Assembly: GCF_964355755.1 (NCBI RefSeq)
Contig: NC_092673.1
Location: 33,353,648-33,417,647, forward strand
DNA from: Antedon mediterranea
Lineage: Eukaryota > Animalia > Echinodermata
Direction of reading: 5' to 3'
Length of the DNA stretch: 64,000 nucleotides
The notes under the pieces are model-generated. The model saw only the letters and a program-made list of their open reading frames with translations. It was not told the DNA's origin and made no database searches. This document shows positions 18,288 to 57,438 of this stretch, one piece after another (position 1 is the first letter of the stretch; the number at the start of each line of letters is the position of its first letter). A program made the position numbers and the translations under genes.

Positions 18288-19176
18288 TTGACGGACAGGA
18301 AACCACTAGTTGTATTTCTAATTCTAAAAATGAATTTTTTTTTAAATAATTATTTAGTGAACAGGATTTCATACCGCAGTTCTGCCATCGTGCACGTTTT
18401 CCTGCCGCCCGCCTGCAATGCGCTTTCCGCCGTAACCCATATGCGCTGTGAATCACTTAAATATGATCTTGACGATAATTTTTAAAGAAAATCAATAACA
18501 TAAATTGTGACTGTATGCTACTTTTAATGCAATGTGATTAGCAGCGAGGACATTTTCGATATTGTTGCTTTCAGAAGACGCGATGCAAGTTGTTTATCTT
18601 CACTAGAATAGGATGAATTACAATAATAATATGCATTCATAATATCGTCGTATATTGCGATGGACACGCATTAACAATGAGAGTCTAATAGTATACTGTA
18701 TACAACGGACTGAGTAACGCCTTAATTCAGCATTAACATTAAAGAAAACTGAACATTTAAATTGTTACTCTTCATTGCGTACCGTACCGGTATATAAATT
18801 CAAAATATATTATTATGGAACATACGTTTTCTTCCTGCCTGCTTTGAAATATTTTTTTTCTTTGCGCATATTTGTCATAATTTATTCGCAGTACAACTGC
18901 GAGTCTACATTAAACAGCGTATTTATTCTTAAAATCACTATCCGCATCAATGATAATGACGTATTGACATTGGTAACTATAGGTAACCGTAATTTTCTTG
19001 TACAAATAATGTTAAACCATATACTTCGTATCAAATCATGTCTGTGGAGCGCATAATATACTGTTGTCACATATCATTAAAATCTTCAAGAATTATGCTT
19101 TCGTGCGCTGCTTGTTTTCATCAATTATTAACGATAACAAAAAATGGCGGTAAATAAAAATATAGTTTGGACTTAC

Positions 19177-19414
19177 TCAAGCAGTCTGCGCTCCCTGCGC
19201 TGTATTTGTTCCTTTGTTAGTTTGCCTCCTTGTTTTTCTTTCCATTCTGTAACTGTTTTCGAAGCTAACTCTACCTCAGGTTCATATGCAACGTTGATTA
19301 CTCCACCGTTTGCCTCAGCCTCGTTGTAATTGGAGACCGAGGCATTACTGGACCTGCGCACTCGTGGCGCCACGTTCAACATGGCGACACGGCCGCCAAT
19401 CGCACCTGCCGCGG
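19177..19414 (-). CDS. Upstream N-terminal exon of the Cav2-type channel
   Basis: Acceptor ttttttttcag, donor GA|GTAAGT; open frame AAAGAIGGRVAMLNVAPR...QRRERRLLE. The phase-2 end (GA) plus the single A before ATG at 2045 gives GAA, in frame with the 1827-2045 exon. Confidence 0.7.
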
Positions 19415-20463
19415 CTGAAAAAAAAGGGGAAAACATAAACATATATATATATAATTTCAACATACATTAATCAATAGTAAGTCTTATATAAAAAATGTTA
19501 ACAAAATAATTTATGTAATGATTATAATTATGATGATGATGATTTATCGAAATATAAATAGGTCTATAAAACTAGGCCTAATTCTTGAGTGATATTTAAA
19601 GTATGGTTTTATTAAATTTTTGTTCAAGATATAAAATATAAGATAAAAGGAAACAATGCATAACTGTCATTCCATAGATTGGAGGAAAAAATCTACAGTA
19701 GAGCCTCTTTACCAAAGTACTCAGCAAAGTGTTCCCTCAAAAGGAGTGTGGTGGGCCTACTGTACGAAGTGCTATCTCAAAAGGAGTGTGGTAGGCCTAC
19801 TGTACGAAGTGCTATCTCGGAGGATCCCAGCACATCCGATTGCAGTGTCACTAAATACAGTTTAACTAACTATCGCAAGTCATTGAAATATACTGTCTGT
19901 ATTACAGGTTCTTTCTGCAGCTAAGGTATAATGTAATGTAAACCCAGTGAAAGCAGGTATAACATGTATTAAAAGTATTTAATCCATATAGGCCTAGCTA
20001 CATTTCCTGTGTCACCAACTAGGGTGAGTGCATGTTTTTTTTTTTACTTGATTTTGAAAATGGTTCCATGATAGTTCTCTGTCATTACATTTTGTATTGA
20101 AAATATACAGTAAACGTTTTTTTAATTTGTACCTAGACTTGTACCTCAATGACTTGCGACAGTCAGTTAAGATGTATCGAAGTGACAGTTCCAGAATCGG
20201 GTGCCCAACCATTGTATATACGATAATACAAATAATTGTATTTATTAGGCAAGTATTTGGGAGCAAAAATAGGCATTAGCCAATCAGAATAACTACTCAC
20301 TGTGCTCCATCACCACTCTCCCTCCTTACTTTACATTTTAATACGTCATTGGAAACTACCATTAGTTTAATTATAAATAAAATCATATATTTTTTATTTT
20401 ATTTATTTATTTTATTTAATCGAAACCAACAGAGATAATACCGCCACTAACAGGTTCGATAAA

Positions 20464-37730: not shown

Positions 37731-38480
37731 CTGTCCACTATCTCTATCTGTCCACTATCTCTATCTGTCCACTATCTCTATCTGTCCACTATCTCTATCT
37801 GTCCACTATCTCTATCTGTCCAATATCTCTATCTGTCCACTATCTCTATCTGTCCACTATCTCTATCTGTCCACTATCTCTATCTGTCCACTATCTCTAT
37901 CTGTCCACTATCGCTATCTGGCCACTATCTCTATCTGGCCACTATCTCTATCTGTCCACTATCCCTATCTGTCCCCTATCTCTATCTGTCCGCTATCTCT
38001 ATCTGTCCGCTATCTCTATCTGTCCGCTATCTCTATCTGTCCACTATCTCTATCTGTCCACTATCTCTATCTGTCCACTATCTCTATCTGTCCACTATCT
38101 CTATCTGTCCACTATCTCTATCTGTCCACTATCTCTATCTGTCCACTATCTCTATCTGTCCACTATCTCTATCTGTCCACTATCTCTATCTGTCCACTAT
38201 CTCTATCTGTCCACTATCTCTATCTGTCCACTATCTCTATCTGTTCACTATCTCTATCTGTCCGCTATCTCTATCTGTCCACTATCTCTATCTGTCCGCT
38301 ATCTCTATCTGTCCACTATCTCTATCTGTCCGCTATCTCTATCTGTCCACTATCTCTATCTGTCCGCTATCTCTATCTGTCCACTATCTCTATCTGTCCG
38401 CTATCTCTATCTGTCCACTATCTCTATCTGTCCACTATCTCTATCTGTCCACTATCTCTATCTGTCCACTATCTCTATCT
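37731..38480. repeat. 17-bp satellite (CTGTCCACTATCTCTAT) x~44
   Basis: Uninterrupted array with occasional variants (ccgct); explains the two long low-complexity ORFs. Confidence 0.98.
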
Positions 38481-40426: not shown

Positions 40427-41352
40427 TTAAGCAACGTTACGGCCGTCCAGTGTAAGCCAGTTCACACGTTATTAACGTTGCGATACACATGTGTATAAGC
40501 TTTTGATTTGCATGAACAAATTCGGCTAGTGAAAAATCGGCTATATATACAATACAAATTCACTAATTAAATTATCCTGTTTTTAAAACAATTTAATAAA
40601 CAACAAAATCTGACATTTTGTGCGTAAAACACATACATAATTCATATATTTAAAACTACAGTATTCAATAACAAATTAAATTATGTAAAATTTACACAAA
40701 ATATCATAAATGAAGCAATTTAAATAAAACATTTTTATAGACTGAAGTACTTTTATCAACACACACACCAATGTAACAATTCTCATTTAATATATACTGT
40801 ATTGAATAAAAAGAAAAATTCTCTAAGACAATATTGAAATTGATTGTTGTAAATTTAATTACACCACATTGTTAAATTACGACGTTGGTGGCAGCATTTT
40901 GAATTGATGTTTACCTATAAAAATAATGCACACTTTCACAATTATGAATTACTGAGGTGCGACCAAATATATGCACACAAAAAGAAAAAAAAGGTTGGTT
41001 CACACTTAGATGCAAGACGACAAGCTCAACGCAAGTGGGTCGACCAATCACAAATAAAAGTTTGGATGGTCCATCGCATGGTGATGGGTTAAAATTCTTG
41101 TGGAGCAGTTACATCCTTGCATTGCATCCACATAGAAACCAAGCTTTAGAATATAATAGCTCACTGGCAGCCCAGGCTCAAGAACCCTGTATACTGAATG
41201 TATTGTACTAATGTCTACATAAAGGAAAAAATATTTACAGAAGTGCTCTTAACACAAACTTAAAAATAATTGTTAAAATTAAATCTATGCCTTTTTGAGA
41301 ACGTCATAAAACAGTGTCCGAATCGATCAAACATTCAACTAAATTAACGAGG

Positions 41353-41497
41353 TTAGTCAACAACAATTTCTTCTTCAGTTTCTGGATCTTCTTGTTCTTG
41401 GTCGGGTCGCGGTAAAGGATGTTTACAGTACGCCGAACCGCAACAGCAATTAAAATATTTGGATTTGATTGCCCAGAATTTATCACCATAATCAAAC
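41353..41497 (-). CDS. EHMT1: EHMT last coding exon (SET end, post-SET, stop)
   Basis: [27 protein letters not shown]...EEEIVVD*; TAA at 41355-41353. Confidence 0.93.
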
Positions 41498-44400
41498 CTA
41501 TAAACACATTAATTGAAGTTAAAAACAACATAGCATACAGTAAGACACCTTTGGGACAAAACATAATGTCTTCCTTATAGGGGTAAAAATGCACAAAATT
41601 TATTTTGTGCACATGGGTGAAAGATAGTCGCACAAAACCGAAGTCAATGAAGCAACTGCTCAAACGTTGACCCACTCAATTACAGATTATTAAATGTACA
41701 GTTACCTTGCCCAGTGGGCTAGGAGGAAAAAACGAAATTAAGCAAAAAAAAAAAAAATCAAAATCTAGGAAGCAAAAAAAATCCTTTGTACATACCCTAA
41801 TTCTTCATAAGCATCAACGTCGCGAGAGGTAAAAAAGACAATGCGTGGGAACCTCAAATCGTGGTGGTCTATGAAAATCCTAACCGGTACAATATTTGGC
41901 TCACATAAATGGTTAATGAATCTACTGATATTGCCATAGTAACGTGCATCAATACAATACACATCTCCTTCCTGGAAAAACAATGTTTATTATTACCATT
42001 ACTTGTTTTGTGGACAAAATAAAACAAGTAAAATCAGTAAACTGTGCCGGTTAGTTAGGAGGTTGTTACACTAAATGGCACTGTGTAATCCAAATCTAGT
42101 GAAAGCCTCTATTACAGGGACACCCTCAGGACTAGAAGATTTCAAGACTGTGTCCCTCTTGACCACCAGAACATATTATTCCTATGGACTGTATTTTAAC
42201 TTTGCTGTATACAAGTTTTTGGTAGCATAAAAACATATAGTTCCCTTCGTAATAAGGGTACTGTAGTTCCTAGGACGACAAGATACAGTACTAGGAGTTC
42301 GATGATAATTTTGACCTTATAATAACCTTGACGTTTCATCGGTTGATAATATCTCAAAGTAAAACAAGAGTACAGTAGCCAAGTGTGCAATACATCACAA
42401 TTTGCAGAATGCTACTTACCCTATTGTCTAAATCAAAGAGGTAGGAATCATCTTGTCTTCTATCTGCTTCTTCATCTGATATTAACTCGCCAGCATATCT
42501 GGAATAATAAGAAATAAAGCATACGTAAATATTTTATTTTAACATTAAACAAAAAACCATTTGTTGGCAGCCAATTTGACTAGTTTTTGCTTTAAATTAC
42601 AGTTTTTTCAGGTAAATTAATTTTTTTTCAATCCAATTTTAGTATGTAACATTAAAATGGCGTATTCAACAAAACATTTTTTCAGGGGGAGAATTCATCT
42701 TTAGGAATCAGTAGAAAATAATATTTGTAAAGAAACAAAAACAGTTAAAAGAGTCTTAAGCTCTGTCTAAACCATCAAACTAGTTTGACAAAAAAAGTGT
42801 GCCCAAATACGGTAATGATATGCCCAAAGATGGTAGTGATATGACATCATCATGTCAATATATGGGCACATCACATTTCACATAAAGTTTGACAGTGTAG
42901 ACAGAGCTTTAAATAAACAAAACTTGCTATTACTTACTCGCATATAAATGTTCCTTTGGGAATTTTCTGCATCGCCCTCAATCCCCAACCCATTTTATTC
43001 GTTCTAAACAGTTGAAGATGACAACGGATGCCATGCTGAACGACACGATTCTTGCAATTCATCCAACAATTACACGCTCGACCGCACTCAAAGATTAACG
43101 GTGGATCCTGGTAATTGAACTCATCGACAAGCTTGCCATTCTAAATTTTAAAATAAATTTTTGTTCATTTAAATAATTTTTAATTTTAGATTGGGAAATT
43201 GTATTGCAGATTATGATGTTTTAAAGGTGGCCTCCAGGGTTGAAATATTTAAATCTTGAAATGGAATTGTATTTAGCCATAACATCGGCAAGAGGCTCAC
43301 TCACTCCATGGTTCTGGTGGTAGAATGAGTGTTCTCGAATAAGGACTATAAACCGTATACACATTTAGCTCATGTGCACTTTAAAAATCTAGTGTATCTA
43401 TCGAGACAAGTAGGGGGCTACCCCGGTATACTACTACAAACAGTCACCATCACACACAACAATAACTGGGCCCCTGGGAGAACAGTCTCTGACTGAAGAG
43501 GCTACCCAGTATAAAGAAAAAGAGATTTAAAAAAAGTATACCTTGTTGTACCAGCATTTTGTGCTACTCTGGCAACAGAAACAGGAATCCAATGCACAGT
43601 CATCATCACATTTGCAACCCTACAATCAATAACACAAAAAAATTATTAAATAAAACTCAATCAAAATGATTCAAATACATACATGATAAGCACCTGGGTT
43701 TAATGCAAATAAGGTGATTATATATCCTAAAAGGCACAGCTACTAATTAACATAAACATTAAATTCTCTACAGAGGAATGTAGTCATTGAAGAAAGAGTA
43801 AAACTTGTTGATAGGGGTGTCTACTGAATATGGGTCGGCAGTAGTATATTACATATTTTTTCCTGAGTTCGTTTTAAAGAAAGTGTCTCATGCGACATGT
43901 GATAAAAAAAAAAGTGAGAAGAAAACTGTCAAAATATGCACCTTCATGTGGATGATACGTCTGTCAATGTTTAACGATGATTTTTCGCAGCTATTTGCTA
44001 CATACAGGAAATCAGTCGGAATTGGAAAATTATCGACTGCATTGACAACTTGGATTGGTCTTGCCTCCCGACCTCGTGAAATATCCCTAAAAACATAACA
44101 AAGAATAAGTTAACATCTACCGGTATCAGGTATAACCAACCAAGTCAAGTTGCAGGTAAGGCAGAGGCATCACAAATAAAAGTTACAAAATCGACACCGG
44201 TTGAAGGTACTCCTTCCCCACAGTTCTGATGGTAGGACAAGTCTTCTTGGATAAACTTCTAACTGGAGGTCCATTGTACACAACTGGCACAAGAACCTAG
44301 TGTATCTTTTAACATGTTGTGGATAGACGAATGAGCTGCAACACTATCTAGAGATGGTAGGAGCGGTATTTATTAAGTTCAGTTAAAAAACTCTGCATGA

Positions 44401-47400
44401 AACGACCCTTAAAATGTTTTGGTTTAATATTATTGTCAACATTAACAGATCTTGTCTTACTTTGACAGTATTCGCTCTGACCGAACAGTACGCAGCGCAG
44501 AAGCCTGACGTATTTTCTGGTTTACTTGTAATGCAAGATACACATTAGACTTGGCATCGCAACAATCTAAAGCTGTGTCCTTTTCTCGATTTTTCAAGAG
44601 TGTGTTTGCTTCTCGCATCAATAACGTTCTGAAAATTACAAATGTTAGACAAAAGAGTTTCATTATAGTGCTATGACACCATAGCTGGAAAGAAGGAAAA
44701 ATGGATGATAAAATTACTTTTTTAAATAAGCTAATTATTAACGTTTGCATAGTAATTAATAAATTACCATACTTATTCGAATAAACACAATAGGGTTTAA
44801 TAACACATTTCAACAGTATTTGTAGTAGAATTCACGACTTCCAAGAGCTACAATTTACCAAGCATTTTGATACCATTTTTACTGTATTTTATCACTTCTT
44901 GATATTATTTGTGTTGTATTTTTTCATATCTAGGATATTTTTTTGGTTAATACATTTTACCATATTAAACCCATAAAAATAAATGCCTCCCAAACAATTA
45001 ATTTCCCAAAGCATTTATTCGAATTAAATATGATAGCTTATTCTAAAAAAAAAAAAATTGTATCATCCATAAAACTTAAGAAGCCAAATGAAATTCTTTG
45101 TAGAGGAACGAAAAATGTTAGCATTTATTATCATTATATTATGCTCATATTATTAAGAAGCGGTTTAGTGACTAATATTCTACTGAAGTTTCAAGTGTTT
45201 AACTTACACAACGCTATCATATCTATCCTCCCTGGCAGCAATATGCCTGAAAAAATTAACACAATAAGCTTACTTACTCAAATTTGATAACTATCAAAGT
45301 CTTTTGCATGCTTGCAGGTAGATAATTTAATTTTTTATTTTGTTGATGATAGGATTATATTACTTGATAATGAAAACATTAGGATAGAATGGCTTTTTAT
45401 AATTGTGTTTCCATTACTGTTTTACCTTTTAATACGAGACAAGCATTATAATTTTTGGACGAATAAAGATATTTTTCTTATCTTTTTTGTAATATATAAT
45501 ATATTAACGTAATAATACTGTTACTAAATACTCAATAGTCCTTGATTAAACAGGCCAACTTTGAACAATAATTATTATAGATTAGTTTAAACAATAGAGG
45601 GTGTTACACTTACAAGGGCGTGTCTCCATTATGATTGGCAGCATTCACGTCACAATTGCTTTCAATAAACAGTTTGATGATGTCATGGGCACCAGCATAG
45701 GCTGCCCAATGCAACCCAGAGTTGCCTTCCTAAATGTGTCAAAAAGATTATAGTAACAACACAAATGATGGCAGTATATTGTACAGAAACAGTACTGTAA
45801 CAGAATACAAGGCTGCAGTGAGTCTATTTTACGATAACAGAACAATTCACATTATACATACCTGATCTGTGATGTTAGGATCACATCCTCTATCAAGTAA
45901 ATGTTGAACAACGTCTAAATGCCTAGCCTCTGCACCCCAGACTAGTGGTGTCCAGCCACCATCATCCTGCAATGTACAATCACATTGAAAGACTAAACGT
46001 TGATTCAGCTAAGAGCTGTCTATAAGCACCAGATTGTCAGTGCTGTATCTTGTTTGTTTGTTTGTTTTATTTGATTTCCACAAATAATACATAATATATT
46101 TCATTATAAATAATTAGTTAACTATAAATGTGGATGGTGGTCAAAATAAGTCTAAGAAAAAGCAGAGACCATATGACAATATTTGTCCAGTATAACAGGC
46201 AACTTCCATAATACAGCATTGTATCAAATTTGGTGCTTTTATCATGAAAGGTTAGGGTCTACCTATCTACGATACAGGTGACACATGCGTGAAACACAGA
46301 ATTTGCCTACGATATTGGACAACTTTAGATACAGTATCGAGAAATGGGTGTAATAAGAAACCTGTAATAACAACAAATGTTTACCTGGATGTTAACGTTG
46401 GTAACAGAGAGTGAAGTGAGATATTGGACACCTTCTAAGAAACCATTCTTTGCTGCTATATGTAAGGCAGCCGTACCTTCATCATCCTGCGAAAAAAAAA
46501 ATCCATAAACATTTACAGTTTACATAAACAGTTTCAATGTGTTTGTTAATTATAAACTACATCTATCTAGTTATAGTATTATATCAAAGATTTTTTTCAT
46601 TTGAATAAAGTAATTTTAGAAAATCTAAATGGTCCTGGGCTTGGTTAACTACTTTTTCTGCTCCTGACCAGTCATCCATTCATTTATTGAGGAAGAAAGT
46701 CTGGCGGTAAGAATGCGCCAAGAATTCAATTTCTACCTCTTTTAGTTGACAAGATAAAGGTATATTTGTACTGTAAATTGAAAATAAAATAACATCCGCT
46801 CCATTTCATACAATTAAGTCTCGAAAAATGTGACCTTGGGAAGAGGTCTTCTGAAGCCAAACTCCTCACCTTACAACTGACGTCAGCTCCATTGAATATA
46901 AGCTGTTTGAAACACTCAATGTGCTTGTTTGCTGCTGTGCACATCAGGGGTGTCTGTGTGTCCTCATCTTTGGCATTGCAATTACCCCCAGCCTGTAGCA
47001 GCACATACAAGATGACATGATGACCCTTCGTGGCGGCGGCATGCATCGCAGTTTCGTAATTGTACTCAGGAAATCGATGATTGGGATCAAATCCTTCAAC
47101 TATAGTAAGAAGTAAAAAAAAAAGCATTTTCAGAAAACTTCTGCCTCAAGACCTTGATTGACCTCTTTGACTACTACATCCATGGCACATGAGCTTAGAA
47201 CAGGTTCAAGAGAATGAAAAATGCAGATTGGTCAAACATAAAAAACATGCACTCTAAAATTTTTTCTATAAACTATAGCAGAAAAAATAGTTTACTTGAC
47301 TCAACTGAACGATAAGTTTAAAAAGCTAGTTTAGTAAACAACAATTAGAAACACTTCAAGAAATAAGTAGTTCTATATTGTACTAAAGGTTTACTGTAAC

Positions 47401-50400
47401 ATTAATGGTGTTAGTGTATTTTGTCTATAATTAGCAGTCTATATACTGTATATTATTTATAATTGTAGAGAAACTTGTAATAAAATGGAGTTTCTTACCT
47501 AATAAGGCAATTACTTTCATCAGATCTCCTTTCAAAGATGGTAAATACAGGTTTTTAGGAGTAAATCCAAGCTTCTTGGACCTAAAAGGGAAAAAATGAT
47601 CACAAACTGAAACACACTACAAAATAGTTTTTAAAAAAAGGCATGTTATTGGGAAAAGTCCATATACATTTAACTTTTTAGAGATGGAAAATGACTGCAA
47701 ACCCAATTCTGAATATTAAGCATGCATTTTGCAATCCAGACCTTCAAGAAAGTAGAAATATTGGTGATTCAGATTTGATTTGTTCAGTCATACCTAATGA
47801 CCTAATAAAGTCTACTTTTTAGCAGATTTCTTAATTTAGTTGGAATTTTCTTTACTTTTATGCACAAAGGCCAAGAATTGGAAGAAGACTTACTTGAATG
47901 TATTAATACACTTTAGTGCAGCAATTAGTGTACTTCTACTTGGTCCAACAGAAAGAAAATCTAGGAGAAAAAATAGTTTTGATAGTAAAAATGGAGTGTC
48001 ATATTAGAGAAGTCCTAAGACCAGGAGAATCACCAGTTCTAGAAACATGTTTCTAAATGAACATGAGAAGAAGTAAACTTGAAGAGTGCAATGGAAATCC
48101 AGTCAACTCTACCAATACTGGACTTTCTGGAAAACTGGAAACTCTTCCAAAACCAGACCTTTCTTAAGGTTCAAAAGGTGCCAACAACACATTCATAATA
48201 CCAGACTTTCCAGCAAACCATAATAGGTCAGGACCAAGGGTGTCCGGTATTGGGAAGGTTGACTGGATAAGCTTTACATAAGTAATAGCAAGCAAGCAAA
48301 CCTGTGCATATGGACTTTCCATTTTTCAATTTAACGGAACATGATTCCTTATCCTGCTCATTTTCTTCAGGATTGTTGGGTAAACACAATGATTTACCTC
48401 CCATTCTTGCCCTGCAGAAACAATTACATAACAAATGAAGAAAAGACAGATTCTTGACAATCACAAGAAGTGCAAATCACTACAGTACATATAAATTATC
48501 ACAGCATAAATTAGCTACTTGGTTGGTATCAAGATTTATTAAACAACAATGAAGGAAATCACATGAAAATATATAATTTCACAAACCTTTTATTACTACT
48601 TTCATATTGCTCAATGAAACTTGGAATGATGTTGCTTTCAACTGTTTCCAACAACGCTATCGGCAGTCTAATCTGCCGCTGCATTTGCAACTCTTGTGCC
48701 GTGATAAGAGAAAGATTATCTGGAATGATATTAGTAACTTTGTGCGCTCTGGACGCATCTTCACCACAATGAGGACAATACAGTGTATTGTTGACCTCGG
48801 CAATACATTCGCTGTGGAAATGATGACGTGTGTGATCTCGTCGACACTCCATAAATGTTCCCTATAATCAAATTAAAAATAAGTAATTGGTTACACATAA
48901 ATATATATTTTTTATGTTGCTTCTCTAGACCACTTATACTTAAATTAAGAAAATCAGACTTTGAATAGGCCATTTTGTAGTTTTAATAAAGTTAATCACT
49001 TCTGAAAAACCAGAAAAAATAATGTTTTCGTTTATAAAAAGACAATTTAACAAGTAAAATTCAACCAAAAACCTGTTGGTTTTTACTCTTTTTTGCTTTA
49101 AATTACAGTTTTTTCAGACAAATGTTTGTTTTTTTTTATCAAATTTGTTTGTCAAAGTGAGAACCTATTATGTGACATTAAAATGGCATATTTAAAACAC
49201 AAAAAAATGAAAAAAATTGATTTTCTGTGGGACAATATATCTTGAAATGTTTATCAAAAAATTCTTAAACTTACCATTGAGCAAAAGCAGCCACATCCTG
49301 GACACCAGCCATGAACAAGTGCTTTTCTCCTGTGACAAATACAATTAAATAGTTACTAAAAATTCTGTACATGACCGAAAAAAGTAAAATAAACAAAATA
49401 TCAGTAAGGTGTTGACACTTTTAGAAAAATAATATAAAAACTTAGAATATAGTAGAACATCTCATCTGGGACACCTCTTTTAAGGTGACACTTTCTAATA
49501 AGACAGTTTGGGACACTTGAAAGGTCTTTTCTAATGAAACAAATGTGTTTCATTGTTACGTTACTTTACCTGTGGTCTTTACAAAGTGTTATTGCAGAAA
49601 TTTTTGTTGATGGTTGACATAAAACAGGATATTCAACTTTTTCTGTACATAATAATATCTGTTAGAAAAACAAAGACGTAAATAGAAAGGAAATCTGAGT
49701 AGTAAAAAAAAAACATTTGTGAATGGAATCAATTAATAATGATCAAAAATCTCAAAACTTTGTGTCCAAAAACTCAATAGGGTTGGTGAAATTCAGTCCA
49801 AAATACGCAGAATTTTTTCCAAAATACGTCAAGTTGAGGGCGCTATACTAATCCAAAATACGCGAGTCTTTCCAAAATACGTCAACTTGAGGGCGCTATT
49901 CATTTTTCAAAATACGCGAATTGTCAAAAATACGTCAAGTTGAGGGCGCTAGTCATTTTCAAAAATACGCGATTTGTCCAAAATACATCAATTTGGAACC
50001 ACTTGTAATTTTCCAAAATACGTCAACTTGAGAGCGCTATTCATTTTCCAAAATACACGATTTAAATAATTACTTTACTTCTTCTAACCAATTATTGATA
50101 TTATTTTAATCACAATACCATATGCTTTTTATTATTATATATTATATGAAATAATTATTATGTTAGATTTCAGATTAGGTAACTTATTAGACCATAAGTA
50201 CTGCGATGTTGGTCTGTCGAGCTCGGGAAAAATATCGATTTTGTAGATCACCAAATATATAACACATACCTGACATACATGACTATACTTAAATACTATA
50301 TACGTACATGCTGGTTTTGTAGTCGGTTTATGCCGCATTTAAACTAGCTACGCCTGGCAATGCAATCGTACATCGTTCAGACAATATTAATGTATATTAT

Positions 50401-53400
50401 AGGCACTGTCTATTGACTGATGTTGGCACATATTTGTTTTTATTCAGTAATAAATGACATTGAAAAAAAATAATTGGCTACTATGGCCCCGTTTCTGCTG
50501 CCAAAAATATACCGTATATTTTATATACGGTATATTTTTTGGCAGCAGAAATGGGTCTCATAAAAAATATACCGTATATATTTGCGGTATATATACTGCA
50601 TAAATATCCCCATCGTTTGTGGATATTATACGGTATATTCCAAAATATACCGTATATTTCGTTCCCCGTTTCTGCTGCACTCAAAATATACCGTAAATGT
50701 GACCCGACTCATGACACGAGGTCAAAAACTAACAGAGCGCGACGCGTTTGTTTTGGTTTTTCTGCTGCATTGAAAGTTGAAACACACGTGTAAAAGCAAG
50801 CAACAGATCAAAATGTCACTGTGGACCGAACAAATCACTATTTTTGCAATTCAATTGTGGGGGGAAGCGAAGGTTGGGGGGAGACTGCATGGCAACAGAA
50901 GAGATACCGAGATTTTAATTACAATAAATCGAATGTTCTTACACGACAACAACGTTGATACTGTATAATAGAAAATGGAAATTAAAACGGCAATATAGGA
51001 TAATATAGCATAATATAAACTCAATTTGAATAACAGAGTTTATTTATAGTGACATTTCTAGATTGTGCTTGTATGTGCGGTGTAAATTCGTTGCCACTTC
51101 TGCTCATTAGATTTAAAATAGAAAGCAATGCTACGACGTTTTGAGAAACCATCATTGTTTTGTTTTTGTCAGCATGTACCGGTAGGTAAAAACCTCACTA
51201 CACGAGGTCAATCCATACTTCCGTCTCACGAAATGCATTTTGGGTAATGAAAGCCAACTTTTTTACAACCCACCCACGAAGTATGTGCAGCGGAAACGGT
51301 GCACGAATTTCATATACGGTATATATACGGTATATTTATACGGTATATTTATACGGTATATTTTGGGTTGGCAGCAGAAACGGGCCCTATGACATTTTAT
51401 TTACAAAAAATTCTGCCTTCTAATAATTTCATTTACAACTAAAATGTACTTGTTTGTTTTATTCCAAGAAACTTTTTTTAATACATTAAACTGTAATTTT
51501 ACCTTACACTCTCAATATGATACATTTGGAAAGGCTCTCGTATTTTGGAAAAAAGATTGCCGCCCTCAAGTTGACGCATTTTAGAAAATTAATAGCGGTC
51601 CCAAATTGCAAATTGACGTATTTTGGACAAATCGCGTATTTTGGAAATGAATAGCGCCCTCAATTTGACGTATTTTGGACAATTCACGTATTTGGGATAA
51701 TTTATAGCGCCCTCAACTTGACATATTTTGGACAATTCGCGTATTTTGGAAAATGAATAGCGCCCTCAAGCCGACGTATTTTGGAAAGACTCGCGTATTT
51801 TGGATTAGTATAGCGCCCTCAACTTGACGTATTTTGGAAAAAAATCTGCGTATTTTGGACTGATGTTCACCAACCCGACTCCAAAAACTGGAATTGCAGC
51901 AATTTTAAAATGGATATTATTTTGTGATACATCTTAAATATCTTTAATAAAATTAAATTTGTCACTGTCTGGAGAAGTTTGATTCCTGCAGCAGCCATTT
52001 TGTCTATCTAGGATCACATGACTGCAAAGAATGTAAAGGCTGACTCTTTTTTGATTCATCGAGTTCATAAACCTCAGCAAACTAGTTTGTCAATAAGGTG
52101 AATAAAGGTTTTCCAAAGTTTTCCAGACCATTTGACAAACTTTGGAAAACTGCAGAAAACAAGTTTGCAGAAGTCTACATTTAGCAAAATTTAACAGAAT
52201 TTGCAAACTAAAGTTTGCTAGTGTAAACAAGACTTTATTTTTAAAATTCATGATTTAAATTTTTGATTTTGAAAAGGTTGAATAACTTACCCCTCCGTCA
52301 ACATATTCAACAGCTTCACATATCCCTGAGTTAGTCTGGCTAGAGGTATTTTCCATTAAACAACAGCATATGGATGTATTCACCTACAGAATAAAGAATT
52401 TCATTCAGAAATGAATCCTTGAAATAGCCTTGGATATTTATTTCTTATACATAGGCCATTAGACCAAATACAACCATATATAAGATCAACTTGTGCTCTC
52501 TGACCCAGAGATAAAAACAATGGAACATACCTTTATATTTTTCCTTTTTGTGCTCTCACATGTTTCTAGTAAACAAAAATTAAAAGAAATTAATTTAATT
52601 ATTAAACATTAATTGTAGAGTAGTACCCTTCCTTTGGAACAGCTCTATTCTGGGGACACATTAAGGAGATACTTTGAAACAATCAAGGGGAATGACAGTT
52701 TTTGACAAGTGTTACCAACCTGATAGTATCGAGTCATCGAAAACAGTAGTGGAAACCCTAGGTTGTACAGTTATGTCTTCAGAAACCTCATGCTGATTAT
52801 CTAAATATCATTAATAGGAGTAAAAGTATACATGAAAATAAACATAACCTTTTTTTCAGTTTTACTAAAAAATATCATACCTCAAAAGTGAAAAGCTCCA
52901 TCTAAACTATAAAACTTTATGCGACAACAAAATGTGATGTGCCCATATATAGACATGATGTCACATCACTACCAAATTTGGAAACATCACATTTATTTGT
53001 CAAACTAGTTTGATAGTGTACACATAGCTTAAGAAATCAACATCATATTAAAAGTGACATAAAGAAAGTGAATTACCTATGGCTTCCAAACGTTTTAACT
53101 TATTTTTTTGTCTCATCTGTTGTGCTCGGTACTCATAGGTCACTTTGCGTTTTCTTTTCCGTTTTTCCTCAGCTTTCTTCAATGAGTATTCAGTTTCTGT
53201 CAGTTTGTTTTTCAATTTCATTTGATTCATTTTAAAGGTATTCTGGGATGGCTCGTTGAGTTCTGAAGTTTGTTCCAAGATTTCTGGATATAAATCAACA
53301 GACATATTTTCTTCCAAACTCTCTGTTACTTTATTATTCCATTGTTTTAAGTTTTTTTTCATGTCATTTAAATCAATCATCTCAACTTTTTGAAAATGTC

Positions 53401-56400
53401 CATCATTTTGTTTGATGTCTTGAGTAGGATTATTCGAAACCACATTATTTGTTATTTCTGATGCTTTGATGCTATTACTTTGTATAGAGTTTTTACCTAG
53501 TTCATGATTAGAAACAGATAAGAAAGACATTGATCCAGACACGTTAGATCCATTTACACATGATTTAAACAGTTTAACTCTGTCGGTACTAGAGTCAGTA
53601 TCTTTCACTACTTCAGGTTCAGTGCATTTTAATGGAATACTTCTTTCAGATTCTCGTTTTATTGATTTAAACACAGAGAAAATGTTGTCTATTTTATTTC
53701 CTCCTTTTGCAGGCAAAATGTCTTTGTCCGATTTCTCATCCTTTCTGGAGAGTTGTACCTCTTGCACTGGAATTTCAATTGCGCTTTGATCATATTGGTT
53801 CCTGTCAGAAACATTTTGTTCAACTGCTGAATTTTTGGTTGTATTAAGTAATGTTTGAGAAATTTTAGAATTTCCATCTGACAAATAATTTTTATGTAAT
53901 TTGGAATTTTCATCTGCAACCGATTTCTTATCGATCTTTTCGACAGAATCAGGTGAAGTAAAAGATGATGTAACAGGAAGAACAGTTGGCATCTGGTGTT
54001 GTATTACAACTTTTTGTCCTGTGTTGCTTGAACCTAAACTAGTAATTGGCGAAGATGTTGGTAACAATAAGCTAAGAGGGCGCTCTCCATTTTTTATAGG
54101 TGCTTTTGACATATCAACTATACTCAGCAGTTCATTGACTGTCCGACCTTTAACTAAATTGGTTGGAATAAGAACGTTTGCTTTTGAAGCTTTAACACAG
54201 TTCAGGAGTTTTGCAGAGGCCAGCAAAGAATTTGTTTTTTCAGTTAAAATATTTTCTTGCTTATCACCAACATCTTGTATTTTATGTGTTCTATTAAATT
54301 TTTTATTTTTGAACATTTGAATTTGCAAAGGTCTTTTGTGTGCTTTTTCGCGGAAAAAATTAATTCCGTTTTTATGTTCTATGTTCCGTTTTACTAATTG
54401 TTTCTGGTTTGGTACAGGTTGTTTTTCTTCATCACTTGACTGACTTGATTGAAATCTACGAGGTGCCTTCCTTTTTCTTTTACCTCTTCGGATATCAACA
54501 CCTTTTCTAGATGTTTTCTTCAAAAAATTGTTCACAGATGTTACAGGAACTTTATGTTTTGAAATAAGATCATTTACTGGTATCTTCACTGTCCCTGGCA
54601 AATCTAATCCATTTTCTACAGCTGTGGCAATCTGAGGTTTTTCCACTAATACCCCAGTAGACTTTTGACGGTCAGATTGTCCAGGTATAGGAACCAGTAC
54701 ATAATTTGTAACAATGCCTTTGTTATTAGTTTGTTTTAACATATGCATTTTGTTTGCAGATTGCAAACACTCCTGTTTTATTGTTTTATTTAAATCTTTG
54801 CATTCAGGTGTATTTGAAAGCGAGGTAATAGATTTTCTGGCTGTTTTTGGAAGTGAGGAAACAGACTTCTTGGCTATTTCTACGAGTGAAGGGACAGACT
54901 TCCTTGCTATTTTTTTAAGTGAAGGAACAGACTTCCTGGCTGTTTTTAGAGGTGAATGAACTGATTTCCTTGCTGTTTTTGGAAGTGAAGGAACCGACTT
55001 CCTTGCTGTTTTTGGAAGTGAAGGAACCGACTTCCTGGCTGTTTTTAGAGGTGAAGAAAATGATTTTCTTGCTGCTTTTTGAAGTGAAGGGAGAGACTTC
55101 CTGGCTGTTTTTGGAGGCGAGTGGAAAGGCTTCCTGGCTGTTTTTGAAAGTGAAGGAACAGACTTTCTGGCTGTAAAATAGCGATGAGGTTTACAAAGAG
55201 ATTTCCGAGCAGTTAATTTATGATGCGGAGGTGGAACATATAAAACTTCAACACATGAATCACTGGAATCATCCAATGTAAACGAAGAATCCGACTCCTC
55301 TGAAGTGCTGATTAAAATTCTTTTGCTCATTACATTGTTTGATTTTCTATCTTTCAATGTGGAATTTGTTTGTAAAATTCCTTTTTTAGTGATGCCATTC
55401 ACACAACTTTTTCTAGCTGTTGGAATGAAACCACAATTGGCTTTCTTATTTTCTACTTTTAAAAATAAAACATCATTTTCGGATTCTTCTGACGATGTTA
55501 GAATTGGTGGCTTTGCATTACATTCCTCTTCTAAGTCATGATCCACCGTTCCATCTTTATTTACGGTAAGTACAGAACTCGATACATGACTAACCATTTG
55601 CATGTCCATAGTTACCTCTTTAACCACAAGATGAGTACATGGTGTGACTGTCGGTTTAACAGCTTTTTTTAAGTAATCCTTCTGTCTCAGACCGATATTA
55701 ACAGGTCCTTTAAAATCACTACGTGGAATGGGTTGTTTAGGATGACTATCTAGAAGCTTATTATCCTTTTTCAATGTTTTCTGAAAATACTCTGGTACCC
55801 TGCTTTCCGAGTGATCAGAAAGCAATTTTCGAGCTGCAACATTTATAGACTTTGGAGATTCCTCTTTTGCAAGAACAAGTTCCTCATAAGCATTTTCAAC
55901 TTCATGGCCTAATTGTTTCCATCTTTTTTTTTGTGAACTATAACCATCCATGCTTGGAGACCAGGTTTTATCAGTATCCGAAGCAGAACTCCAATTTTCT
56001 GATTCAGTAAACTTATCAGACGAATGTTCCAAGTCAGTTTCATCAGGACTTAGCAAGTTAAGAGTTGTTTGAAAGTTTTTGCCTAATATCTTTTGAGCCT
56101 GCTCATTAATTTTGTCATGTTGGTTTGTACAGTTAGTGTTATTTTGAATACCAGGTGAAGTAACTATTGTTTCTTCTGCAGCTTTCTTATCTGGATTTTC
56201 AGTTGGTAATTCTTTACTCATTCCTGCAACTATTGGCAATGATGCATCAGTTGTTTCAAGACTCCTTTCTTTTTTCTCTATAGAGTCGGTTTTCACTAGT
56301 TTTTCGTCAAATACATTGATTTGCTTGGTTTCCATTTTACCATTGCATAAACTATTTGAATGTTTATCGCCAGCTTGTTGTTGGTTTTCATCAGGTCCTG

Positions 56401-56404
56401 TCAT
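41353..56404 (-). CDS. EHMT1: Euchromatic histone-lysine N-methyltransferase (G9a/GLP family; EHMT1/2 co-ortholog), 22 coding exons, 5802 nt, ~1933 aa
   Basis: Hand-spliced GT-AG exons give one open frame: long disordered N-terminus, Cys-rich domain ([14 protein letters not shown]), ankyrin repeats, pre-SET, SET ([17 protein letters not shown]) and post-SET (CCCGSAYC). The symbol denotes the family; EHMT1 versus EHMT2 cannot be resolved. Confidence 0.95.
41796..41971 (-). CDS. EHMT1: EHMT SET exon
   Basis: [26 protein letters not shown]...EELG; cag/gtatgt boundaries. Confidence 0.95.
42420..42498 (-). CDS. EHMT1: EHMT SET exon
   Basis: [27 protein letters not shown]. Confidence 0.95.
42759..42908. 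mobile_element. MITE family B in an EHMT intron
   Basis: Family-B TIRs with TTA on both sides. Confidence 0.8.
42938..43140 (-). CDS. EHMT1: EHMT pre-SET/SET exon
   Basis: [37 protein letters not shown]...[19 protein letters not shown]. Confidence 0.95.
43290..43520 (+). mobile_element. SINE relic resembling the Deu/Nin-domain core
   Basis: taaggactataaaccgt...gtgcactttaaaaatctagtg...tcgagacaagtaggggg...ccccggt resembles the Deu/Nin core as recalled; not aligned. Confidence 0.4.
43542..43619 (-). CDS. EHMT1: EHMT pre-SET exon
   Basis: [26 protein letters not shown]. Confidence 0.93.
43942..44086 (-). CDS. EHMT1: EHMT pre-SET exon
   Basis: [18 protein letters not shown]...[11 protein letters not shown]. 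Confidence 0.93.
44461..44628 (-). CDS. EHMT1: EHMT ankyrin end / linker exon
   Basis: [23 protein letters not shown]...ERILSK. Confidence 0.9.
45208..45246 (-). CDS. EHMT1: EHMT 39-bp ankyrin exon
   Basis: (L)[12 protein letters not shown](V); ttttcag/gtaagt boundaries. Confidence 0.9.
45614..45729 (-). CDS. EHMT1: EHMT ankyrin exon
   Basis: [39 protein letters not shown]. Confidence 0.93.
45862..45966 (-). CDS. EHMT1: EHMT ankyrin exon (methyl-lysine cage)
   Basis: [35 protein letters not shown]. Confidence 0.95.
46385..46486 (-). CDS. EHMT1: EHMT ankyrin exon
   Basis: [34 protein letters not shown]. Confidence 0.93.
46870..47099 (-). CDS. EHMT1: EHMT ankyrin exon
   Basis: EGFDPNHRF...[11 protein letters not shown]...[11 protein letters not shown]...GADVSCK. 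Confidence 0.93.
47499..47581 (-). CDS. EHMT1: EHMT exon
   Basis: [27 protein letters not shown], similar to G9a KKLRFHPRQLY. Confidence 0.9.
47894..47960 (-). CDS. EHMT1: EHMT exon
   Basis: [23 protein letters not shown]; splice phases fit both neighbours. Confidence 0.85.
48302..48411 (-). CDS. EHMT1: EHMT exon
   Basis: [12 protein letters not shown]...[10 protein letters not shown]. Confidence 0.85.
48587..48861 (-). CDS. EHMT1: EHMT Cys-rich domain exon
   Basis: [19 protein letters not shown]...[10 protein letters not shown]. Confidence 0.9.
49275..49329 (-). CDS. EHMT1: EHMT Cys-rich domain exon
   Basis: [18 protein letters not shown]. Confidence 0.9.
49570..49658 (-). CDS. EHMT1: EHMT Cys-rich domain exon
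   Basis: [30 protein letters not shown]. Confidence 0.88.
49775..51879. mobile_element. Foldback/MULE-like non-autonomous DNA transposon with ~280-bp modular TIRs
   Basis: Arms made of ~52-bp subrepeats (ccaaaatacgtcaagttgagggcgct) in inverted orientation; flanked by the direct repeat TCCAAAAACT at 49765-49774 and 51880-51889. Confidence 0.8.
50485..51387. mobile_element. Harbinger-like non-autonomous element nested inside the foldback element
   Basis: TIRs ggccccgtttctgctgccaa...ttggcagcagaaacgggccc, TAT on both sides, subterminal ataccgtata repeats. Confidence 0.75.
52291..52383 (-). CDS. EHMT1: EHMT Cys-rich domain, first exon
   Basis: [12 protein letters not shown]...[11 protein letters not shown], similar to G9a LCSCRME...CMATESVDG. 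Confidence 0.88.
52531..52565 (-). CDS. EHMT1: EHMT 35-bp exon
   Basis: [12 protein letters not shown]; needed to convert phase 1 to phase 0. Confidence 0.75.
52720..52800 (-). CDS. EHMT1: EHMT 81-bp exon (symmetric phase 1-1)
   Basis: [27 protein letters not shown]; tttag/gttggt boundaries. Confidence 0.65.
52894..53029. mobile_element. MITE family B, degenerate
   Basis: Family-B interior and right TIR gtttgatagtgtacacatagct. Confidence 0.7.
53077..56404 (-). CDS. EHMT1: EHMT giant first coding exon (~1109 aa, disordered, ARKS array, basic NLS-like clusters)
   Basis: 3.3-kb stop-free frame from ATG 56404 (MTGPDEN) to donor ATAG|GTAATT at 53077/53076; candidate acceptors place the exon start at 56444 or 56492. 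Confidence 0.88.
54812..55174 (-). repeat. Coding 33-bp tandem repeat x11 encoding histone-H3-like TARKS units
   Basis: [121 protein letters not shown]. Confidence 0.97.
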
Positions 56405-57438
56405 CTTTCTTTTCTTTACAAACACTTCCAACACATTATAGTTTCTGAGGGGAAAAGGTGTGCATTATAAATGAATGTTCAGTACAAAATCACTGGAATA
56501 AATGAAAAAAAAAGGAATTCTGTAAATATTTAGTATGAATCGTTGGCAGTCACAAAAAGATGATGCTGCATGGTATTTAAACATTTTTCGCAATTTAAAA
56601 AAAATAATGTCGCCAATGGTGCAACACTGTAAAGAACATGACCTAAATATGGGGGTGAGTTAAATGGCTGTATTCACCAATCAAAAACAAGTTTTCATTA
56701 TTTTCACTAATTGAAGTCAATCAAATTTCAGGTCAGTAGTACCTAGATAGAAGAATTTATTTTTTCCCAAATCTAAGTGCGATACATAAAGCACTTAGTA
56801 CTGTAGAGTAGCTGTATTATTGTAGTAGCTGGAGTATTTTTTGTCCTACCCTTTTTGAATAAATGTTATTGAACTTGAGTTAAAACAACAATATTTACAT
56901 TAAATATACAGTAATGACAAAACCTTGTTACAATCTCTTGCGTCAAGTAAACTAACTACCCAGGTTAGAGACAATCTTCTACTGTATACTACAGTATAAA
57001 ATTATATTTCTAACCAAAAAAAAGTTTCCCAGAAAAATAAAAACACACTCATTGTTTGACACAGTTTTAGAAATGGAAATAAATGTAGTACCAGAACAAA
57101 AAAAACATGTGAAAAGACGGTCAGTGTTAAGTTTGTCTAGGCAAATGTGAATACTGGTAAAAATACTAATGGTAGATCTATATTTAAACAAAATCTAAAC
57201 TTCCGTTTTCAAAATAACTTAATAAGCATTTTTTTCTTTTCTGAAGATAATGTTTGTTTGTTTGTTTTATTAGTTTTCCACACACAAATAAATACAATTA
57301 ATCACATGTTAAATAATATAGTATTCAATAACTGAAATAACAAAATTAGGATAAGTGGTGTGTGGATGGAGGCCAAAATAAGTTTGTTAAACAAACTTTA
57401 AGCCATGGCCACCGGTTAAAATTAAAATCAAAATAAGT

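Follow-up and report, generated by a model that had tools for sequence, protein, structure and literature searches.

A tandem array of ARKS motifs in the N-terminal region of an EHMT (G9a/GLP) protein from the crinoid Antedon mediterranea

The closest described counterparts of the protein reported here are mammalian G9a/EHMT2, with K185 (K239 in mouse), and GLP/EHMT1, with K205, which belong to the same family and likewise carry an N-terminal ARK(S/T)-hydrophobic motif. The G9a site is described as automethylated, as binding HP1 and CDYL, and as switched by Aurora B (PMC2175347, PMC8541646). According to PMC2175347, automethylation of the ARKT of mouse G9a is about as efficient as methylation of the ARKS of histone H3, with a kcat/Km of 165 for the mammalian mimic against 137 for H3, and it generates an HP1 site. 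The substrate preference reported for G9a is Ala-Arg-Lys followed by a hydrophilic and then a hydrophobic residue, and phosphorylation of the adjacent Thr by Aurora B is reported to counter the methyl-dependent function (PMC8541646). On the reader side, the HP1-gamma chromodomain is described as burying six residues (positions −4 to +1), of which the Ala at −2 occupies a pocket, and as binding G9a K185me2/3 at 9 to 14 µM (PMC3325965). In G9a, automethylation is known to act through one docking site that is either on or off.

The window analyzed here is the whole stretch of 64,000 nt from A. mediterranea (contig NC_092673.1, positions 33,353,648 to 33,417,647), and it contains an EHMT (G9a/GLP) gene encoding a protein of 1,933 aa. 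The features of this gene are as follows, in window coordinates.

40985 to 56444, minus strand: whole spliced EHMT model, 22 exons, 1,933 aa, with at least one further 5′ exon
53077 to 56444, minus strand: first coding exon, 3,368 nt, first ATG at 56404, with a long low-complexity N-terminal region
55406 to 55420, minus strand: upstream TARKS (TARKSC..GI.KK), whose ortholog is the first of the Anneissia motifs
55199 to 55213, minus strand: upstream TARKS (KLTARKSL), whose Anneissia counterpart, KLTARKTL, is part of a duplicated 49-aa unit
54815 to 55177, minus strand: array of eleven 11-aa units with an 11-residue consensus (nine ARKS, one ARKP, and one AKKS)
48587 to 52383, minus strand: exons of the EHMT Cys-rich region, with a Pfam PF21533 match on exon 48587 to 48861
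44461 to 47099, minus strand: ankyrin-repeat exons, from Pfam and the exon model
41353 to 44086, minus strand: pre-SET, SET, and post-SET exons, with the stop codon at 41355 to 41353 and intact catalytic motifs

The exon model begins at 56444 and ends at 40985, each of its 21 introns has AG/GT ends, and its translation from the first Met is identical to the 1,933-aa RefSeq protein of A. mediterranea (P0001), which is public under the annotation "uncharacterized." Searches of the exons against Pfam returned EHMT1-2_CRR, Ank, and SET above the cut-off and Pre-SET below it (single exons were searched), and no Pfam match was found in the first exon. The Cys-rich region, ankyrin repeats, pre-SET, SET, and post-SET domains follow one another in a single polypeptide. 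In a PDB search the SET region aligned to human G9a without gaps (E value, 3e-126), and GLP was also matched. The EY.GE, RFINH.C, and FDYG motifs and the post-SET cysteines are intact by comparison with human G9a chains and six EHMTs, and we take the matching residues to have their usual catalytic and zinc-binding roles. The ankyrin Trp residues and the Glu of the presumed cage, which we take to be a methyl-lysine cage, are identical to those of vertebrate EHMTs in an alignment of six EHMTs. A FastTree phylogeny of 37 EHMTs (542 columns), built from EHMTs only with no non-EHMT outgroup, placed Antedon as sister to Anneissia (support, 1.0) within the echinoderms (0.999). The Pfam domains, the human G9a match, and the tree thus agree with the G9a/GLP family call of the initial annotation, which was made from the DNA letters. 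The SET region (around residue 1803 of P0001) reads CEYAGE in all four aligned echinoderm EHMTs and CEYVGE in all three vertebrate ones.

The minus-strand open reading frame from 53048 to 56464 contains exactly 11 ARKS motifs. The array units are contiguous, head-to-tail, and in frame (11 × 33 nt) within the first coding exon; TRF reported a period of 33 with 11.1 copies and 78% matches (54809 to 55174), and the mean pairwise nucleotide identity among units is 0.76. Two of the eleven units lack an exact ARKS motif. The composition of the array and the two TARKS motifs upstream of it, starting at 55213 and 55420, are exactly as first annotated. When the 1,147-aa N-terminal region was shuffled 2,000 times, ARK[S/T] occurred 0.05 times on average and at most twice, against 11 observed. 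No further ARK[S/T] was found in minus-strand frame 0 of the window, and the other five frames hold only two. Position −3 is Thr in eight of the eleven units, Ile in two, and Ala in one, while position +2 is V, L, F, or I in all eleven, and L and C in the two upstream TARKS motifs. ARKSVPS occurs in five units and KAARKS in one. The array has a net charge of +31 and 14 prolines in its 121 residues.

Two other parts of the N-terminal region are shared with Anneissia. A conserved block at about 55760 to 55910 (minus strand), within an otherwise divergent N terminus, includes VAARKLL, the ARK of which could be an additional methylation site. A basic stretch of 27 residues at about 54440 to 54520 (minus strand) is nearly identical in Anneissia and looks like a putative nuclear localization signal beside phospho-sites.

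Connection of the array to the catalytic domain is provided by a 6,200-nt contig (record 1 of run X1), which carries both the array and an intact SET domain. Its pieces are listed in 4 of the 22 exons (the last, ankyrin, Cys-rich, and array exons), and all its listed record coordinates (511, 1724 to 1954, 2214 to 2488, 2843, and 6179) equal the cumulative lengths of the exon model minus one 33-nt unit, so that the array and the SET end lie on a single spliced contig. This contig is a short-read rather than a long-read assembly and is classed as RNA by the tool's guess (none of the runs listed as matching the locus is recorded as RNA), yet it has no introns. It extends the model by 21 nt at an upstream 5′ exon. 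With the 22-exon model, it confirms the exon-to-SET connectivity on which the initial annotation had made its proposal depend.

An assembly or annotation artefact was considered as the source of the array and rejected: three DNA-like runs from one sample cover both array halves, and their contigs break at a 38-nt exact repeat inside the array, as an 11-unit graph would. The X1 contig holds ten units and lacks exactly one 33-nt unit (54966 to 54998). Because the ten-unit form omits exactly one lap of the 38-nt exact repeat, an allele and an assembly collapse look alike here, and the form may be either.

Other repeats and frames occur in the window. An EHMT intron contains a Foldback/MITE-like insertion (49780 to 51876) with very high contig depth and with 238-nt inverted arms that are 88% complementary and consist of 53-bp subrepeats. 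The contigs of all four runs omit 50483 to 51386 inside this insertion, which suggests a second, nested element. A non-coding 17-bp tandem repeat of 44 copies (96% matches) lies at 37731 to 38480. Exon-like frames of a second gene lie on the minus strand at 1879 to 2074 and 19176 to 19466; Pfam and PDB searches gave no match, and the first, to our eye, resembles a segment of a voltage-gated calcium channel.

The ARKS codons are constrained between units, and the spacers drift neutrally. Pairwise pN/pS among the 11 units is 0.06 in the ARKS codons and 1.14 in the seven other codons. Counting distinct alleles, synonymous and replacing changes stand at 5:2 in ARKS and 4:18 in the spacers (P = 0.016), and on a minimum spanning tree of the units the ratio of synonymous to nonsynonymous changes is 10:2 in ARKS and 7.5:30.5 in the spacers (Fisher P = 1.9e-4). 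A neutral simulation of 50 events expected 13 replacements in the four ARKS codons (P = 7e-5; P = 8e-4 when any four-codon window was allowed). The events behind these tests number about 50 in 363 nt, the comparison is between units of one gene rather than orthologous DNA, and gene conversion makes the units non-independent. The target Lys and the −2 Ala are unchanged in all eleven units, and the +2 residue varies (V, F, L, and I) yet is always hydrophobic. The Ser at +4 is also invariant (11/11), but by an estimate from the counts it is not significant alone among the seven spacer columns. The ARKS motif is therefore more conserved than its flanks, and three sites are common to Antedon and Anneissia. 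Two of the conditions under which the initial annotation would have been refuted, a missing splice to the SET exons and ARKS positions no better conserved than the spacers, thus do not hold.

The motif is the EHMT family's own automethylation site and is usually single. Among 106 other proteins longer than 1,000 aa, mostly vertebrate EHMT1 isoforms, ARK[S/T] occurs exactly once in 104 and is absent from 2. Among 44 EHMT-like proteins (of 150 representative matches, in a search crowded by ankyrin proteins), the motif is absent from 21, some of which are N-terminally partial and the named ones of which are arthropods, and it occurs once in 16, twice in 4, three times in 2, and five times in 1. 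By comparison, 106 non-EHMT ankyrin proteins contain 3 ARK[S/T] in 284,479 residues. Several EHMTs lacking ARK[S/T], of which the one named is from a sawfly (P0249), have an AIARKEKS-type motif, which may be a diverged mimic. In the echinoderms the counts are 1 to 2 in urchins, 2 in Apostichopus, 3 in Acanthaster, 4 in Patiria, 4 in Anneissia, 7 in both Asterias, and 11 in Antedon. With 4 motifs in the sister crinoid, 1 to 2 in urchins, and none in 21 of the 44 proteins, high valency is not required by the EHMT family.

Three Antedon sites have Anneissia counterparts in the same order. The Anneissia amplification is a duplication of 49 aa at the second site, while Asterias rubens has five and Asterias amurensis six 43-aa units, each with ARKSAP. 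The AARKSAP units of these two proteins (P0005 and P0145) are closer to the H3K27 context than the Antedon units are. Ray EHMT2 (Hemitrygon and Mobula) has five ARKS about 50 residues apart, with a distal identity of 0.19 to 0.24; the ray and starfish units were anchored on the motif, which makes their core identity partly circular. As the unit lengths differ and lie on separate branches of the tree, the motif, judged from these comparisons, is separately amplified in Antedon, Anneissia, Asterias, and ray G9a. A search with the array alone recovered only P0001 among 1,954 candidates (1,063 to 3,383 aa), though this was a weak search that also missed Anneissia. We found no expanded mimic array in an EHMT, and no report of the ray five-motif region, in a literature covered by titles and abstract openings, mainly outside subscription journals. 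The initial annotation knew of no described expansion of this kind, and the lack of a report in that literature agrees with this; the array is nevertheless not unique, other EHMTs having expanded the motif separately. The Antedon array is real and under selection; a known motif was amplified in a lineage-specific event of a kind repeated in several lineages.

The best reading of these results, with a probability of about 0.6, is the multivalent docking already put forward by the initial annotation, in which the enzyme would methylate its own array and HP1-type chromodomains would dock on it. The constrained positions are those that the writer and the reader need, and from this we infer docking; the hydrophobic +2 kept in all eleven units agrees with the substrate preference given for G9a in PMC8541646. 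Comparison with Anneissia suggests a common ancestor with three motifs, the third of which Antedon would have amplified by 33-nt duplications. By analogy with mammalian G9a, the array lysines would be di- or trimethylated in cis or by a dimer partner. Each methyl-ARKS would then present a six-residue chromodomain footprint, and since the period is 11 residues the footprints would remain separate, with five-residue linkers between them. Such spacing would raise the avidity for dimeric HP1, and the readers would come off jointly once an Aurora-type kinase phosphorylated the adjacent serines. Against docking stand the far lower motif numbers of close relatives, the two units without the motif, the ten-unit form of the X1 contig, and the helices that AlphaFold draws in units 7 to 11, since the peptides bound by SET domains and chromodomains are extended.

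Tolerated slippage is an unlikely explanation, in which one to three ancestral motifs would suffice for the normal function and the remaining units would form a minisatellite that is almost neutral and lies where the protein tolerates it. Copy number is indeed labile (11 against 4 in the two crinoids, 5 against 6 units in the two Asterias, and possibly 10 against 11 within A. mediterranea), the spacers evolve neutrally, tandem repeats abound in the flanking introns and in the intergenic DNA, and the Littorina EHMT (P0217) has an N-terminal repeat free of the motif. However, the ARKS codons carry many silent changes and nearly no replacements, a separation that neutral copying or homogenization would not produce, and the motif is included in all four separate duplications.

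We consider it decidedly unlikely that the array is a decoy or brake, competing unmethylated in cis for the SET site or, once methylated, titrating readers, demethylases, or Aurora kinase that would otherwise act on H3. Every unit fits the G9a substrate consensus, eleven tethered copies would give a high local concentration, the mammalian mimic matches H3 in the kcat/Km values of PMC2175347, and automethylation is cited as regulating Clr4 activity in bioRxiv 2025.10.22.683908. Docking and this explanation account for the selection pattern equally well, so that it does not separate the two. However, mutation of the single mouse G9a site is reported to leave catalysis unaltered (PMC2175347), the SETDB1 double mutant is reported to retain activity (bioRxiv 2025.10.22.683908), and the array lies some 1,100 residues away from the SET domain. 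The units also lack the GG of KSTGG, which according to the review PMC2887955 should block binding by the protein's own ankyrin repeats, so that self-binding of this kind is unlikely.

A reading in which the array binds DNA, RNA, or some other surface as an amphipathic or basic 11-residue repeat, its histone likeness being inherited and incidental, appears very unlikely. The charge noted above and three SPxK motifs would suit it, of five harmonics tried the 11/3-helix one is strongest (0.51), and a PDB search with the array returned no histone peptide but weak matches to designed helical repeats and one ribosomal protein. The single-sequence AlphaFold model gives units 1 to 6 low confidence and draws units 7 to 11 as helices, with a pLDDT of 87 to 94 across units 10 to 11 and the next 30 residues. 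This model was made without an alignment, however, and its mean pLDDT is 52; the 11/3 moment is not significant (column permutation P = 0.06), the array contains 14 prolines and Leu is changed to Pro at the would-be helix face in three units, and conservation extends to Ala and Ser rather than to charge alone.

That the array mimics H3K27 or H3.3 and recruits Polycomb chromodomains or PRC2, a flavor given to it by the initial annotation, is scarcely credible: the ARKSVPS units, the single KAARKS, and the AARKSAP of Asterias do recall the H3K27 context, but a hydrophobic +2 and Pro at +3 are common in single-copy EHMT mimics (Pro +3 in 34 of 58 motifs of 26 other EHMTs, or 21 of 44 by subtraction of the two Asterias proteins), ARKSVPS is already present at the single orthologous site of Anneissia, the array does not favor KAARKS over TARKS, its predominant Thr at −3 being the K9 context, and the HP1-gamma chromodomain is described as reading −4 to +1 and not the downstream residues (PMC3325965). 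As EHMT mimics typically have such downstream residues, a K27 or Polycomb reading is unnecessary.

A selected array of eleven units together with separate amplifications in at least four lineages suggests that valency itself matters. A further idea, which we advance tentatively and regard as doubtful, is that mimic number on G9a/GLP is an evolvable dial, with Antedon as the extreme: a self-written synthetic histone tail that would gather many HP1 dimers, nucleate an HP1 compartment without nucleosomes, and be released in one step by mitotic phosphorylation. Natural EHMTs with 1, 2, 3 to 4, 5, 7, and 11 sites would form a ready-made valency series, and with its short and regular array Antedon offers a simple means of testing whether reader avidity, H3K9me spreading, or HP1 condensation scales with the number of sites, a scaling that the one-site mammalian enzyme cannot show.

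Set against the known systems, mammals have one dominant site (vertebrate GLP has one), whereas Antedon has 11 exact ARKS, nine of them at an 11-residue period; the Antedon motif has Ser where mammalian G9a has Thr. Ray G9a resembles it in multiplying ARKS in the EHMT N terminus but differs in its spacing of about 50 aa, its HRARKS context, its identity as the vertebrate EHMT2 paralog, and its separate origin. ATF7IP K16, LIG1 K126, and histone H1.4 K26 are described as lying in motifs of this type, which chromodomains of MPP8 or HP1 read (PMC6172828, PMC3325965); unlike the Antedon array, these are single trans sites on other proteins. The nearest published precedent is SETDB1, an H3K9 methyltransferase described as having two self-methylated mimics eight residues apart (K1170 and K1178) that bind HP1-gamma, CDYL, and SUV39H with catalysis unchanged (bioRxiv 2025.10.22.683908). 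As presented in that preprint, its two motifs lie inside a SET insertion of an enzyme from another family and not in an N-terminal tandem array like that of Antedon.
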